DNA of 64,000 nt, taken from IMG/VR virus record IMGVR_UViG_3300035698_012408. The stretch is one strand, 5' to 3'. Positions 58,091 to 64,000 of the stretch are shown here, one piece after another. Positions within the stretch are counted from its first letter, which is position 1; the number at the start of each line of letters is the position of its first letter. The position numbers and the translations under genes are program-made. Source of the stretch: a virus. The notes under the pieces were generated by a model. The model did not search any database. It was not told the DNA's origin and saw only the letters and a list, made by a program, of their open reading frames with translations.

Positions 58091-58447
58091 TCAGAATTGA
58101 AGTTTTGCTATTTTCCCTTGCCGCTTTGACCGACGATAGTATATCACAATCGGCCGACAAGGGTAACCTTTGCGGCTTTCGATAAATGCCCGGACATCTT
58201 CAAGTGCCGGGTCCTTCGTGCGTTTCAGCTCCAGAAGTTTAATGAACAGGGCATCTACGCACCCGCTCATAAACTTCCACTCGCTGCCACACGTTTTACA
58301 ATGTCTATTGTCCAGATACGCCTGCCATGACGCAAGGGCAACCTCGCGAAGATAGGCAAAAGCCGGGGCCTTGACATAAAAGTCGGGAGCCTTCAGCAGC
58401 CCAATCATGTGCTGGCGATCTAGCTTCAATCGTCTGTTTTCACTCAC
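58091..58447 (-). CDS. hypothetical protein
   Basis: 118 aa with a 4-nt overlap with the upstream GT gene. Confidence 0.5.
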   Translation of the reverse strand: MSENRRLKLDRQHMIGLLKAPDFYVKAPAFAYLREVALASWQAYLDNRHCKTCGSEWKFMSGCVDALFIKLLELKRTKDPALEDVRAFIESRKGYPCRPIVIYYRRSKRQGKIAKLQF

Positions 58448-60624
58448 AGTTCAACTAATTTGAGGGCTGGAGGAGCCACTACCCGAGGTTGTCGCGGCGG
58501 TACGGGCGGTGGTGTGGCTGTGGGCGATACCAGCGGTGGAACCTCCATCACACGCGTATTATTGCGTGGTGCCGGCTGCGGGGGCTGCGTCGCCGGAGCT
58601 TGAGCTGGAGGCCTGGGTGTCATGCCTTTTGCGACCGTGTCGATCAGCGGCATGGTGGACCCGCGGCGGTCCACGGAGCTGGTACGAACAAACTGCTTGC
58701 TGCCATTGAACTGCTTGATGGCGAAACCTGCTTGATATACCTGCTCCCCGATCTGCCAATCCCCGCCCGTGTGTGACAGGCCTGTGCCGAGATCGGGAAT
58801 ATCCGCTGTCTTGATACACTCGTGGGTGATTGCCCAGAACCCGCCGGTAGCAAACAGGATTTTCGTGCCGTTCGGGCTAGGCTTGTCGTTGTGCATCCGC
58901 CACGGACGTCCCTTGTACCACGGTCGCGAGGACAGGACCTCTCGCTGCGTCGGATTGGTCGTCCACACAAACTTCGCTCCGAACATGTGAGCGTTGTTTG
59001 ATTTATGGTGATTTACGATATGCTGCGTGAGTATGGACGCCCAGTTCGGGTTGACGTCGCAGACCGAGTCGTCGTCGAACCAGAGAACCCACTTCGTTTC
59101 GATCGGACAGTCAGGGTCAAAGAACATCTCGCGCATGACCGGATACTTGTAGACATTCTCGGCGTGCTGGTAATGCTTCCGAATCACACCCTTTTTCACA
59201 TAGTTCTCGATCATCGCCAACGACTTTGAATTCAACGCGTTGGAACCAACACGCAGATCCATGCGGCCCGCGGGCATGGTAGCTATCACAGATTCAAGAC
59301 ATCGCTTGTGCAGGTCATGGAATTCCTCGCCGCCGTAGAACAGAATACAGACGGTGTACTTCCCACCCACGTCCTCATTGTCGAAGGCCGCCTCGCTCGC
59401 GTATTCTCGTGTGCCGCCAGGACGCACGGCCACCCCATGCTTGGCTGACCGCCCACGTGTCTCCAGTTTCGCCTTCGGGCTACCACTCATCCGAATGTTA
59501 GCATTGGCTGGCAATTTTACGGAAGTGCGGGCTGACACATGCTGGCTGCCGCGTTTGCATGCCTGCTTAGACGGTACGACTTCGAGCAACTTGGGCTCCT
59601 GCAATTCGGGAGGCTGGACGCCGCCAAGGGGCGGGAGGCTTTGGTCGGTGTAATATTTCATGACTGCTTCCAATACAAGTTCAGGGGTTATCATATTCAT
59701 GCACTCGGCCACTGCCTGTCCTGGCAAGTAAATAGGCCGATGACACAGCAATTTATCATCATTCAGCGGTGTCACTTTGTTCCTCCAACAGCCGTGATGC
59801 TTACAGCAATCCAGCATACCTATCGTGTGCAGATACTGATGGGGCACCAAGATGTTTCCACTGGCTGTCGGACCAAAACCTTTGTTCTCGTTGACGTAGG
59901 CTTCCCACCACCACGCCTCGCGACCACCGCCGAGCACCACCGCGGGACGCTGTAACGCGGCGGCTATGTGCATGGCTGCTGTAACGCCGCAGATAACACC
60001 ATCTGCGTGGTGGATCAGACGTATGAGATCGCGTAGGTTTGTCTGCCCCACAAGATCCAACACTCCGGTGAGCGGCGGATGCCAGTGTCCGCCATCGTTT
60101 CCGCCAGCCTGCACAACGCCGAGACCCCTTGTGGTCAGGGCGTCAACAACGGTTTGAAAGTAATCGGGTCGCCATACCTTGACCGTGGCATCACTCTTCC
60201 CACCTGACAGTATAACCCAATAACGACCATCAACCAATGACACGTCACGCTCAGCGTCGGACAAGTGCAGATCGCCATACGGATGGTGCATCGGTACTTC
60301 TATACCAGTCTGCTTCTTGAAGTCACGATGAAAATATCCACAAAAATGAACGGTCTCTATGTTCTGCACACGAATGCCAGCACCGTACGAGAGCTTGATA
60401 AACTGCACGCCGGGCTTCAACGCCTTCGGTTTCTTTGATTTATGATTCCACAATTCGGTGATATATGGATTGTGCCGCCACAAGTCTGGACACGTCGTAT
60501 CGATGTCTATCTCGACCTCGTCGCCGTACGTCAAATGAATGTCGCGTACCAACGCGGACATGCAGACAATGTCGCCGGGAGATCGGTGGTGTGCTAGCAC
60601 AATTCTCTTGGGATTAACCGCCAT
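58444..60624 (-). CDS. two-domain glycosyltransferase: N-terminal GT9 heptosyltransferase-like plus C-terminal GT2-like, with Pro-rich tail
   Basis: GT9 half: RIVLAHHRSPGDIVCMSALVRDI and LVGQTNLRDLIRLIHHADGVICGVTAAMHIAAAL. GT2 half: KYTVCILFYGGEEF...WFDDDS. Tail: PPAQAPATQPPQPAP. Confidence 0.75.
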   Translation of the reverse strand: MAVNPKRIVLAHHRSPGDIVCMSALVRDIHLTYGDEVEIDIDTTCPDLWRHNPYITELWNHKSKKPKALKPGVQFIKLSYGAGIRVQNIETVHFCGYFHRDFKKQTGIEVPMHHPYGDLHLSDAERDVSLVDGRYWVILSGGKSDATVKVWRPDYFQTVVDALTTRGLGVVQAGGNDGGHWHPPLTGVLDLVGQTNLRDLIRLIHHADGVICGVTAAMHIAAALQRPAVVLGGGREAWWWEAYVNENKGFGPTASGNILVPHQYLHTIGMLDCCKHHGCWRNKVTPLNDDKLLCHRPIYLPGQAVAECMNMITPELVLEAVMKYYTDQSLPPLGGVQPPELQEPKLLEVVPSKQACKRGSQHVSARTSVKLPANANIRMSGSPKAKLETRGRSAKHGVAVRPGGTREYASEAAFDNEDVGGKYTVCILFYGGEEFHDLHKRCLESVIATMPAGRMDLRVGSNALNSKSLAMIENYVKKGVIRKHYQHAENVYKYPVMREMFFDPDCPIETKWVLWFDDDSVCDVNPNWASILTQHIVNHHKSNNAHMFGAKFVWTTNPTQREVLSSRPWYKGRPWRMHNDKPSPNGTKILFATGGFWAITHECIKTADIPDLGTGLSHTGGDWQIGEQVYQAGFAIKQFNGSKQFVRTSSVDRRGSTMPLIDTVAKGMTPRPPAQAPATQPPQPAPRNNTRVMEVPPLVSPTATPPPVPPRQPRVVAPPALKLVEL

Positions 60625-60625
60625 A

Positions 60626-62790: not shown

Positions 62791-62793
62791 TCC

Positions 62794-64000
62794 TTACCCG
62801 ATTTTCTCTACGGTGACTGATGTTCCCGGGTGGAGTAGCGATGACGCCGAACCGCCTTGGAACGTGACACGGAGGACATTGGTGACATATAAGTATAACA
62901 CCTTCTCGAACGACTGGTCAACCGGTTCCGCACCAGTTCCTAGATCGGAGGTTTTTATCGCGTACTGTGAGCCGCCCACGCGGATACGCATGGTCGCCAC
63001 ATCGCCGTAATACGCATTGCACGAACCACTGATGCGATAATACCCATCAGCAGATATGGTCCAGTCCCCGGTACCGCCCGAGAAAGTGATAGCGGTTCCG
63101 TCGAATACGTTATCCCAACCTCCGCCGCCGGAGTATTGAAACAGGTTGATTTCCGAGAGCCCGCCGCTCGTGTTTGCAGACGACAGCCACAAGTTAGAGA
63201 ATTCCGATGTAGCCCCCGCGCCGTCATCGCCGTCGTCGCCATCGGCACCAGCGGGTCCGGTGGGACCGGTTGGGCCAACGCCGCCGTCGAGTCCGTCATC
63301 GCCGTCAGGGCCAGTCGGACCAGTGGGGCCGCCGGGTATGCCAGGATCACCTTCAGGGCCGGTCGGACCAGTAGGTCCCGGAGGACCACCTTCAGGACCT
63401 ATCGGCCCGGTGGGGCCTGTAACACCGACACCTGTTGGACCTGTTGGGCCTGTGAACCCGGTCGGGCCGATGGGTCCGGTAGGGCCAATGGGTCCACCAG
63501 ACGGACCAGTTGGGCCCGTAACACCTGTGGCGCCGGTGGGTCCGGTGCAGCATGGACCAGTTGGTCCGGTGGTTCCTGTGGCTCCTGTGGGTCCGGTGCA
63601 GCATGGGCCAGTTGGTCCGGTGGCTCCAGTGAGTCCACTGCCCGTGCTGCCGCTAGCTGGGCCAGTAGGGCCTACCGGTCCGGTGGGACCAGTAGGGCCG
63701 CCACCGCTCGGACCGGTAGGCCCAGTGTAGCCAGTCGACCCGTCCATGCCGTCATAGCCGTTCGTGCCATCGAGTCCGTCAGCACCAGCTACTCCAGCTA
63801 TCCCTTGCGGCCCTATGGCACCTGTATCGCCTTTATCGCCCTTAATACCTTGAATACCTTGTATACCTGGATCTCCGTCCGCACCATCCACGCCTGGGAT
63901 GCCTTGGTCGCCGTCTGCACCTGCTGGACCTGTGTACCCAGTAGGTCCGGTCGGCCCAGGAGGGCCGCCACCAGATGGACCTGCGGGACCTGTAACGCCA
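62794..64000 (-). CDS. collagen-like (G-X-Y repeat) fibre protein with globular C-terminal domain, partial (N-terminus beyond the right edge)
   Basis: More than 260 residues of GPTGPxG repeats. The reading frame stays open upstream of the track start: 63891 is a GTG inside ...[10 protein letters not shown].... A non-repeat C-terminal ~135 aa probably forms the receptor-binding tip. Confidence 0.8.
63536..63623. repeat. 51-bp-period tandem duplication inside the collagen-like gene (encodes [17 protein letters not shown] twice)
   Basis: 37-nt cores at 63536..63572 and 63587..63623 differ at one base. Confidence 0.8.

Follow-up and report, generated by a model that had tools for sequence, protein, structure and literature searches.

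Glycosylation of virions has, to our knowledge, been shown so far in few phages only. In mycobacteriophages it blunts antibody recognition, and elsewhere glycosylated collagen-like fibres are represented by BclA of Bacillus and by the fibrils and collagen of mimivirus, to which the glycosylated capsid of chloroviruses can be added; the GT25 family of glycosyltransferases (GTs) includes collagen galactosyltransferases. Enzymes of the SunS type glycosylate peptides, their target being a Cys in a small helical peptide. The bacterial autotransporter heptosyltransferases (BAHT), among them TibC and Aah, assemble as dodecameric rings and O-heptosylate Ser in a protein substrate. TibC has a β-barrel domain at its N-terminus, an N-lobe of four strands that is atypical, and an iron finger that is inserted in its C-lobe and whose cysteines (Cys339/342/358/370) are spaced C-x2-C-x15-C-x11-C (PMC4358343). 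GmaR, which transfers N-acetylglucosamine (GlcNAc) onto Listeria flagellin, has a GT domain followed by tetratricopeptide repeats (TPRs) (PMC9638930). In the mycobacteriophages Che8, Corndog and Myrna, according to papers that cite Freeman et al. (2023), the products of tandem GT genes glycosylate the phages' own particle proteins, at C-terminal segments. Here we analyse a module of three consecutive GT genes in the IMG/VR virus record IMGVR_UViG_3300035698_012408. The window, i.e. the whole stretch of DNA analysed, covers 64 kb (64,000 nucleotides) of a phage genome of ~215 kb.

The three genes encode a 726-aa fusion of a GT9-type domain and a GT-A domain, and two enzymes that join a GT2-type catalytic domain to TPRs (GT2-TPR A and GT2-TPR B). 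The same operon contains a collagen-like fibre gene and the genes of a Ser-rich protein of 348 aa (P348) and two small proteins (P118 and P103). We propose, as the best-supported reading, that this module belongs to a late operon and glycosylates the phage's own fibre-like particle proteins, a putative function to which we give an even chance of being correct. A protein acceptor on fibres is favoured because the GT2-TPR enzymes are related to GmaR and SunS, the GT9 domain carries TibC-like cysteines, the P348 gene is held in synteny, collagen-like genes lie alongside and the phage has an HldE homolog of its own. Heptose would probably be among the putative virion sugars.

Results

An operon shared by glycosyltransferase and fibre genes

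All focal genes lie on the minus strand, in the order collagen-like gene, GT2-TPR A, GT2-TPR B, 726-aa gene, P118, P348 and P103 (Table 1). Direct reading of the sequence gives TAA, GGA, ATG (a 3-nt spacer) between the collagen-like gene and GT2-TPR A, an ATGA overlap between the two GT2-TPR genes, TAA, T, ATG (a 1-nt spacer) between GT2-TPR B and the 726-aa gene, and a GTGA overlap between the latter and P118. P118 and P348 are separated by a 13-nt spacer with GGAGG inside, and P348 and P103 again overlap in ATGA, so that no junction overlaps by more than 4 nt or is wider than 13 nt. Approximately 25 nt past the P103 stop codon there is a G+C-rich stem of 13 bp followed by U5; its fold has a ΔG of -21.6 kcal/mol (z = -5.5), and 0/200 shuffles fold as well. 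A scan for consensus promoters and terminators gave counts not above those of shuffled sequence and missed this P103-distal terminator. Given the tight junctions and the terminator, the seven genes make up a single operon that is translationally coupled and whose end is defined.

An earlier note on this DNA, made from the sequence alone, had described four GT domains in three consecutive genes joined by short junctions to a collagen-like gene, and the sequence reading confirms this arrangement, in which the phage GT genes are clustered with structural genes by sharing an operon with the collagen-like fibre gene. The Ser-rich 348-aa protein to which the same note drew attention exists as well, but it is not directly adjacent to the GT genes and sits two genes downstream of them.

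A GT9 domain with an invariant cysteine cluster

The 726-aa protein consists of a GT9-type GT-B domain, a disordered linker (residues 336-415), a GT-A domain and a disordered Pro-rich tail ending in LKLVEL. Its AlphaFold model, with 28 homologs in the alignment, has a mean predicted local distance difference test score (pLDDT) of 79. The GT9 domain passes the family threshold of PF01075 (E=6.5e-14, 52.3 bits against a cut-off of 22, residues 108-235) and is modelled as a GT-B fold of two Rossmann lobes. Foldseek matched it to WaaF, TibC, a GT9 protein of Veillonella (3TOV) and WaaC, and the TibC chains had the best TM-score and root-mean-square deviation among these fold matches. When the profile of the fusion family was compared with the PDB, WaaF was found at 4.7e-7. 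The catalytic Asp that follows β1 (in PGD18) is nearly invariant, and K149, which is aligned to the Lys of WaaC and WaaF, is invariant.

An insertion of ~70 residues late in the C-lobe, where the model has a lower pLDDT, sets this GT9 domain apart. It contains five Cys, with the spacing CC-x4-C-x14-C-x13-C, that are invariant in 28/28 sequences and make it a candidate metal finger; sequence searches gave no alignment of this insertion to the chains of WaaF or WaaC. The parallel with TibC and Aah drawn previously holds for the Cys cluster and the likeness in fold. It does not extend to family membership: against the TibC/Aah model TIGR04414 the domain scores 16.4 bits where the cut-off is 200, and the TibC-type N-terminal β-barrel was not found in the model, in which β1 (residues 6-12) leads into a helix, the arrangement of a classical GT9 lobe. 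The GT9 domain thus resembles TibC and is at most TibC-like in its working, and is not a member of the TibC/Aah family.

The GT9 matches bear directly on a host-directed alternative that we consider unlikely, namely that the GT9-GT-A fusion and HldE remodel the host envelope by adding heptose and a second sugar to the lipopolysaccharide (LPS) core or another glycan, for example to block superinfection or to keep progeny from being trapped on debris. The best NCBIfam scores of the GT9 domain are indeed those of the LPS heptosyltransferase III, RfaQ, I and II models, and WaaF and WaaC are among its best PDB sequence and fold matches. However, these NCBIfam scores (47.4, 43.4, 31 and 29.7 bits) all fall far below the equivalog cut-offs (170.2, 467, 185.3 and 134.6, respectively), and envelope remodelling does not account for the Cys insertion, which failed to align to WaaF or WaaC.

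The GT-A half and the C-terminal tail of the fusion

The second half of the fusion is modelled as a GT-A fold with pLDDT mostly >90, for which Foldseek returned TarP, SpsA, PcManGT and B3GalT6. Its DDD motif at residues 517-519 is invariant in the family alignment. The whole 726-aa protein has no Pfam GT2 match at 0.01; when the GT-A domains of family members were searched in isolation, 9/9 matched PF00535 or PF13641 at 2.5e-4 to 0.2, all sub-threshold. Because these matches are consistent yet sub-threshold, the name 'GT2' for this half is reasonable but weakly founded, and of the previously proposed 'GT9-GT2 fusion' the first term stands firmly and the second only as such a label. A profile-profile comparison of the GT-A half with the catalytic domain of the GT2-TPR enzymes detected no relationship; the two are distinct GT-A lineages and not duplicates.

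The tail (residues 667-726; 58447..58626, minus strand) ends in a conserved C-terminal peptide, with the forms ...LKLVEL, ...RRIVEL and ...PIVRL, which is seen only in a clade that also carries GT2-TPR genes. It could be a docking peptide for TPR domains. A tie between the Pro-rich ...IVEL tail and the GT2-TPR genes was considered and set aside, since the co-occurrence is at clade level only and is confounded by phylogeny.

GT2-TPR enzymes related to protein and peptide glycosyltransferases

GT2-TPR A and B are paralogs with 33% identity. Both match phrog_13126 at ~1e-70 (A: E=1.3e-73) and both pass the TPR_14 cut-off of 23.5 bits, A with 37.9 bits and B with 28.7 bits; A also matches PF13704 (1.2e-5). 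In A, the catalytic domain, of GT-A/GT2 type and with the motifs DTGSTD and DLDE, is N-terminal and the TPRs are C-terminal. B keeps DLDE, and its nucleotide-binding motif is partly degenerate, reading GLSPSQDRT instead of DTGSTDGT. The DxD motif (D83, D85) is invariant in all members of the family. The C-terminal repeats strongly match consensus TPR proteins, and besides such designed TPRs the family profile finds solved catalytic relatives in the PDB: the GT domain of GmaR (1.7e-18, profile positions 3-188), 7msk (7e-11) and SunS (1e-8). By these profile matches, the closest solved relatives of the GT2-TPR enzymes are protein or peptide glycosyltransferases, and none is an LPS enzyme.

This relationship speaks against envelope remodelling. 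In its favour are the labels given by phage annotators, who call phrog_13126 and the homologs in phages PaBG and Lu11 lipooligosaccharide (LOS) β-1,4-glucosyltransferases. Only the GT2-TPR genes have relatives in cultured phages (DSL-LC01, PaBG, Lu11 and HRDY3), and these are distant, at ~35% identity.

With both enzyme families at hand, we can also weigh the view that the GT domains are catalytically dead and have a structural or scaffolding role. It could point to the altered D(S/T)G motif of the GT9 domain, to the degenerate nucleotide-binding motif of GT2-TPR B and to the sub-threshold Pfam matches of the GT-A half. Against it stands strong purifying conservation where catalytic residues are expected: across 28 sequences whose identity to the window protein goes down to 46%, little or no variation is seen at PGD18, GGK143, K149, DDD517-519 and GGD622, the DxD of the GT2-TPR family is invariant, and sugar-activation genes co-occur with the module. 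Since the catalytic residues of the fusion and of GT2-TPR are kept in this way, pseudoenzymes, which had been named as a case that would overturn the glycosylation reading, are most improbable.

Candidate acceptors: the collagen-like protein and the P348 family

The collagen-like ORF (open reading frame) is open up to base 64000. Its product matches Pfam Collagen (E=2.4e-19) and PHROG tail-fibre families (best 3e-43), has Thr at the Y position in 37% of its G-X-Y triplets, and carries a globular C-terminal domain of ~135 aa for which no meaningful PDB sequence match was found. A 51-bp tandem repeat within the gene (2.5 copies, 63503..63631) encodes Cys-Cys pairs in the triple-helix region, which could form inter-chain disulfide knots. 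We also asked whether GPT-rich collagen goes together with GT2-TPR genes; no clear association emerged, the GPT-rich and GPQ-rich types not tracking GT content.

P348 is the sole credible gene product of the window that has a 10-residue stretch with at least seven Ser/Thr. It is built from an N-domain and a long helix (residues 1-122), a disordered Ser-rich linker (123-155) and a β-sandwich (156-348), the latter with a second Ser-rich loop at ~241-258. In the model the β-sandwich is confident, while the β-rich N-domain, which precedes a 25-residue helix, is of low confidence. Foldseek comparison of the β-sandwich gave weak matches resembling carbohydrate-binding modules in the PDB (4e-4) and, in BFVD, distal or C-terminal domains of tail, minor tail and collagen-like proteins (best 1.2e-9). 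Conservation across the family is limited to the first 125-140 residues, and most members, with 130-190 aa, are the N-domain alone; the Ser-rich linker and β-sandwich of the window protein are a clade-specific extension. What the GT9-GT-A enzyme has as its constant partner is thus this N-domain of ~130 residues. A scan of 1.84 billion representatives retrieved 2,966 P348 relatives (clusters at 50% identity), again with the N-domain mostly alone, and showed that the P348-type β-sandwich also occurs alone or, in proteins of 500-1574 aa, repeated 4-7 times in tandem. The N-domain profile had no PDB or PHROG match. Because the N-domain has no detectable homolog of known function, the place of P348 in the virion is one that we infer.

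A Ser-rich stretch straight after the helix recurs in the P348 family, and in most of the short members it is the C-terminus itself, as in ...PPADSSSSIG and ...ESSSSSSSSSSSAESSSA. At least three Ser in six residues were found in 28/46 locus-derived members and in 69/126 independent representatives, compared with a background of 15%; for at least four Ser in six residues the counts are 20/46 and 59/126, and the background is 3.8%. Members lacking the stretch end just past a conserved ...IG.PP motif. To judge by its composition, a disordered poly-Ser tail beside a heptosyltransferase-like enzyme would be the expected look of an O-glycosylation acceptor. Poly-Ser cannot be the sole acceptor, however, because a Ser-rich stretch is missing from about half of the family.

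P103 and P118 are paralogs of ~100-120 aa with a central GCxxC and a C-terminal ...LK.LL.A..hRh... motif (44 and 17 unique homologs in the loci). Two loci, L025 and L030, have a third P103/P118 copy ahead of the GT9-GT-A gene. These small proteins give rise to another explanation, in which the targets are not virion proteins: the module could be an effector system that glycosylates P118/P103, through glycocin-like S- or O-linkages in the Cys/Ser loop, or host proteins. The matches of the GT2-TPR profile to SunS and 7msk fit this explanation, SunS-type enzymes modifying a Cys of a small helical peptide, as do the conservation of P103/P118 as ~100-aa paralogs with an invariant central GCxxC and the indirect nature of the case for P348 as a virion protein. 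It is made improbable by the mismatch in distribution between GT2-TPR, present in 13/66 loci, and the near-universal P103, and by the fibre-like β-sandwich of P348 and the collagen-like neighbours, which point to particle proteins.

A conserved core in a large uncultured lineage

The 726-aa family comprises at least 392 clusters at 90% identity, nearly all of them metagenomic and many on contigs of 160-228 kb; an identical 726-aa protein is present on a contig of 215,361 bp. In IMG/VR the family has 62 loci. Metagenomes that contain the lineage come from marine, saline-lake, freshwater and engineered systems, and its contigs reach 228 kb. Outside viral and metagenomic contigs the fusion is almost absent: among 185,579 species with cellular genomes, the search gave three loci. 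Two of them lie on contigs (5 kb and 62 kb) of metagenome-assembled genomes (MAGs) and are taken to be mis-binned phage DNA. The third (L072, 7998..8964), on a 912-kb contig of a Planctomycetota MAG, has a GT9-only homolog with the same Cys cluster, split in two ORFs; it lies beside a phage-type integrase and is probably what remains of a mobile element in decay.

In 50,697 phage records, neither megablast with the region nor tblastn with the 726-aa protein gave a match. By the large terminase, the nearest isolates are the Vibrio phages D69/D181/D148 and Salmonella phage Arash, at ~30% identity. The 'Moraphage' lineage (PMC12619734) was considered as the identity of this phage and rejected, as it has predicted Bacteroidota hosts and carries DnaK/DnaJ, which were not seen here.

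For synteny, 66 non-redundant loci were assembled, their ORFs called and searched with profiles built in this analysis. The GT-A half is present in 59/66 loci, fused in 52 and as an adjoining separate ORF in 7. A P348-family gene lies at most 2.5 kb downstream of GT9(-GT-A) in 60/63 loci with enough downstream sequence, and P103 at most 10 kb downstream in the same 60/63; P118 is present in 29 loci, about half. GT2-TPR genes occur in 13/66 loci, and a collagen-like gene at most 10 kb upstream in 18/44 loci with enough flank. Many further contigs break within a collagen-like gene, and in three divergent lineages the module is flanked by collagen-like genes of the tail-fibre type. These counts define an invariant core of GT9(-GT-A), a P348-family gene and P103, to which particular lineages have added the GT2-TPR pair and the collagen-like gene. 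The synteny check called for by the earlier note thus upheld the linkage of the GTs to the Ser-rich protein, extended it to P103, and reduced the GT2-TPR genes and the collagen-like neighbour to accessories.

The coupling to P348 and P103 in 95% of loci, in a fibre operon, would go unexplained under envelope remodelling. Seroconversion is moreover typical of temperate phages, and no integrase, repressor, lysogeny gene or Gtr family turned up in the Pfam scans of ~75 window ORFs.

The Pfam content of the relatives' neighbourhoods, known from 25 listed of 32 families in 148 neighbour-family representatives, includes GT1/4, GT2, GT25, GT61, GNAT, tail collar and tape-measure genes. In more distant loci (L064-L068) GT9 alone is found in different phages, with a P22-like portal or other capsid families, and is adjoined by several ORFs of ~1 kb that are likely further GTs (Glycos_transf_1/2). 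This distribution suggests that phage glycosylation islands have the Cys-finger GT9 domain as one of their mobile components.

In L052 (12455..21112), three collagen-like genes (631, 527 and 444 aa) stand between the P348-family gene and P103, which suggests that this gap is a hot spot for fibre-gene insertion. Upstream of the collagen-like gene, four conserved families (~550, 560, 265 and 345 aa) are found in 21-31 loci, for example at 2085..8719 of L005 and 1130..3330 of L004. At least two of them have a common N-terminal motif, N(W)YN.N..R.YP(F/L)...IVD, which would fit paralogous proteins of a fibre or baseplate that have an adaptor in common. The profiles of two of these families had no PDB match, and tblastn of two members against the phage database found nothing.

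A probable phage-encoded supply of ADP-heptose

The HldE that the earlier note invoked as a partner of the GTs is present in the window as a full-length homolog, in a DNA-metabolism region 45 kb from the operon. It is of the heptose-7-phosphate kinase and heptose-1-phosphate adenylyltransferase type and matches PRK11316 at E=2.7e-92, residues 15-482 corresponding to positions 11-467 of the 475 in the model. Its score of 309.8 bits is below the cut-off of 521, and the models of the two domains are both matched below their cut-offs (235.9 bits against 345 and 129.3 against 181.5). This gene is likely the source of ADP-heptose for the GT9 domain, as far as its family assignment goes. The IMG/VR contig of locus L051 carries a second HldE homolog; when viral contigs were scanned twice for HldE co-occurrence, only one locus was recovered, by a pattern method that was too narrow. 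The ORFs that flank HldE (10366..11232 and 12807..14153) had no Pfam or PDB match, and no phage GmhA/GmhB was recognised. Presumably, then, the host supplies these enzymes, and we infer that it is probably Gram-negative.

HldE is an LPS-core pathway enzyme, which adds to the case for envelope remodelling. On balance this alternative, which the earlier note had raised as the rival to fibre glycosylation, is weakened by the relatives of GT2-TPR, the Cys insertion and the P348/P103 linkage, although the family labels of GT9 and HldE still favour it.

A heptose supply would also serve hypermodification of DNA, in which heptose-containing glycans are placed on hydroxymethylated bases. Phage GTs put mono- or di-heptose on 5-hydroxymethylcytosine, for which a kinase/HAD and a nucleotidyltransferase are needed, and structural genes can surround such clusters (Pyle et al., bioRxiv 10.1101/2023.12.21.572611). 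The marine locus L056 has the same enzyme types directly after P103 (13243..15214, minus strand): a nucleotidyltransferase (133 aa), a cupin (131), an HAD phosphatase (107) and a sugar kinase (288). The resemblance of the GT-A half to TarP is likewise shared with DNA-modifying GT-A enzymes. However, neither a C5-methyltransferase nor a 5mYOX/TET enzyme or hydroxymethylase was found among the ~75 window ORFs scanned, and the 25 listed of the 32 neighbour families contained no DNA methylase, TET, hydroxymethylase or thymidylate-synthase family, a negative limited by the ~150 kb of the genome that lie outside these scans. The DNA-modifying GT-Bs reported by Pyle et al. resemble T4 β-GT, BshA and MshA and not GT9, and the TPR-bearing GmaR/SunS-type enzymes and the P348/P103 partners would have no place in a DNA pathway. 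We therefore see only a slim chance that DNA is the acceptor.

Features of the window

The positions of the operon genes, of the domains of the fusion and of HldE are collected in Table 1.

Table 1. Positions of the features of the glycosyltransferase operon and of the HldE gene in the window
Feature	Position	Strand	Basis or remark
Collagen-like fibre gene, 3' part	62794..64000, runs off the window	-	Pfam Collagen, PHROG tail-fibre
GT2-TPR A, 361 aa	61705..62790	-	phrog_13126, TPR_14
GT2-TPR B, 360 aa from ATG at 61708	60626..61708	-	phrog_13126, TPR_14; ORF list has TTG at 61723 rather than this ATG
726-aa GT9 + GT-A fusion	58444..60624	-	Pfam GT9, family alignment, AlphaFold, Foldseek
GT9-type GT-B domain of the fusion, residues 1-330	59635..60624	-	
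Invariant Cys cluster C273, C274, C279, C294, C308	59701..59808	-	GT9 C-lobe insertion, candidate metal finger
GT-A domain of the fusion, residues ~420-665	58630..59367	-	
P118, small protein, central CxxC	58091..58447	-	paralog of P103
P348, Ser-rich, 348 aa	57031..58077	-	family alignment, model, synteny
P103, small protein, GCxxC, final operon gene	56723..57034	-	conservation in relatives
Intrinsic terminator	56665..56697	-	read from sequence and folding
HldE homolog	11357..12841	-	NCBIfam PRK11316, phrog_7878

Elsewhere in the window, the region ~46300..53800 (minus strand) holds families common to the cluster O (Corndog-type) mycobacteriophages, which are reported virion glycosylators. 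This Corndog-like block includes an AAA ATPase (51220..52878; ~28% identity over 96% of the length), a DUF2997 protein and a protein of the GP88 family (PF17338). The corresponding region of the marine locus L005 (16630..20572) also has a DUF3150 protein, whose counterpart in the window (46332..47492) is without a Pfam match. A 70-aa ORF at 44728..44940 (minus strand) that begins MLVLSRKKNEVV is probably the source of a Pfam CsrA match (E=3e-9), and its product would then be a CsrA-like RNA-binding regulator encoded by the phage. The long plus-strand ORFs at 51178..52917 (579 aa) and 12498..14459 (653 aa), which oppose the AAA ATPase and HldE genes, are artefacts of the 56% G+C content and do not merit annotation.

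Discussion

A putative route to glycosylated fibres

In the route that we propose, the phage HldE would raise the ADP-heptose pool, and the GT9 half of the fusion would transfer the first sugar, most likely heptose, to hydroxyls of an acceptor protein, for which the Ser-rich stretch behind the P348-family N-domain is the prime candidate. The fused GT-A half would then add a second sugar to the first. The GT2-TPR enzymes may recognise protein substrates through their TPRs and add further or different glycans, with the Thr-rich collagen-like fibre encoded immediately upstream and/or P348 as candidate substrates. The outcome would be a glycan-coated fibre or decoration protein, the purpose of the coat being conjectural.

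A narrower form of this proposal is virus-encoded protein O-heptosylation, in which a GT9 enzyme with a TibC-like metal finger, a GT-A extender and HldE act together on the poly-Ser tails of the dedicated and very widespread P348 family and on fibres, building glycans that contain heptose. This specific form we put forward as a tentative possibility that may well prove wrong.

Several observations weigh against the glycosylation of fibre-like particle proteins. The D(S/T)G motif of GT9 enzymes is replaced by CGVT (C212, G213, V214 and T215) at the position where WaaF has NDSG, and this replacement is constant throughout the whole family (28-sequence alignment). The NCBIfam models of LPS heptosyltransferase III and RfaQ (47 and 43 bits) outscore the TibC/Aah model (16 bits). 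The GT2-TPR pair is confined to 13/66 loci and the upstream collagen-like gene to 18/44, and in about half of the P348 family the Ser-rich stretch is missing while the GT9-GT-A gene persists. For the P348 N-domain, P118 and P103, no homolog with a known function could be detected. Heptosylation of phage DNA does occur, and the likeness to TarP extends to GT-A enzymes that modify DNA. The portion of the ~215-kb genome examined is 64 kb. Taken together, the idea of a glycosylated phage fibre or Ser-rich protein, as first suggested from the sequence, has gained computational support, whereas poly-Ser as the only acceptor and the constancy of the GT2-TPR and collagen-like genes have had to be given up.

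If particle proteins are indeed the acceptors, sugar-coated particles would be common among environmental phages, given the size and global distribution of this uncultured lineage. The GT9-GT-A fusion and the compact GmaR-like protein GTs would be new enzymes for protein glyco-engineering, and Escherichia coli already makes ADP-heptose. The module also offers a way to ask whether protein heptosylation exists beyond autotransporter adhesins. Should the O-heptosylation form hold, it would extend protein heptosylation for the first time beyond bacterial autotransporters and to a virus, and the poly-Ser proteins would represent a new 'mucin-like' class of phage surface protein.

Comparison with known systems

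We regard the module as a probable variant of virus-encoded virion glycosylation, and our literature search found no paper describing it. Its GT9 domain shares with the BAHT enzymes TibC and Aah a GT9-related GT-B fold and a C-lobe Cys insertion of similar spacing; Ser in a protein as acceptor and ADP-heptose as donor, which are TibC's own, are those proposed here. It differs from these enzymes in having five Cys instead of four, in its fusion to a GT-A domain and in being phage-encoded, without a β-barrel and with no autotransporter substrate present. With WaaC, WaaF and WaaQ (CAZy GT9) it has in common that PF01075 is passed, that the catalytic Asp and the C-lobe Lys are kept and that the best PDB and NCBIfam sequence matches are to these enzymes. 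It is set apart from them by the replaced D(S/T)G motif, the Cys insertion, the GT-A fusion, the location in a phage fibre operon and scores far under the equivalog cut-offs.

The GT2-TPR enzymes belong to the same catalytic-domain family as GmaR and SunS/ThuS and have the same architecture, in which TPR-type helical repeats for recognition of a protein substrate lie behind the catalytic domain. Compared with GmaR, they are much shorter, have no anti-repressor domain and are encoded by a phage as a tandem pair of paralogs, and their acceptor is putative. As in BclA and the mimivirus collagens, a collagen-like protein, here rich in G-P-T, stands beside dedicated GTs, and GT25 is found in relatives; in contrast to those systems, no hydroxylase was seen here and the collagen-like gene is not a constant neighbour. 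The DNA-modification clusters of Pyle et al. likewise combine phage GTs with sugar activation, include heptose among their products and contain TarP-like GT-As. In the present module the GT-B is of the GT9 type and not of the T4 β-GT type, the further GTs bear TPRs and conserved protein partners are present, and neither a C5-methyltransferase nor 5mYOX was found (window ORFs and 25 listed of 32 neighbour families).

A further parallel is offered by the mycobacteriophages. Both have tandem phage GTs, and the C-terminal glycans on capsid and tail-tube proteins there have a possible counterpart in the poly-Ser tails of many P348 proteins here. Virion glycosylation is putative in our case and would involve a GT9-GT-A fusion and GmaR-type GTs as the enzymes, heptose, likely made through the phage's own HldE, as a sugar, a probably Gram-negative host, and as putative acceptor a dedicated small protein or fibre instead of a capsid or tail-tube protein.

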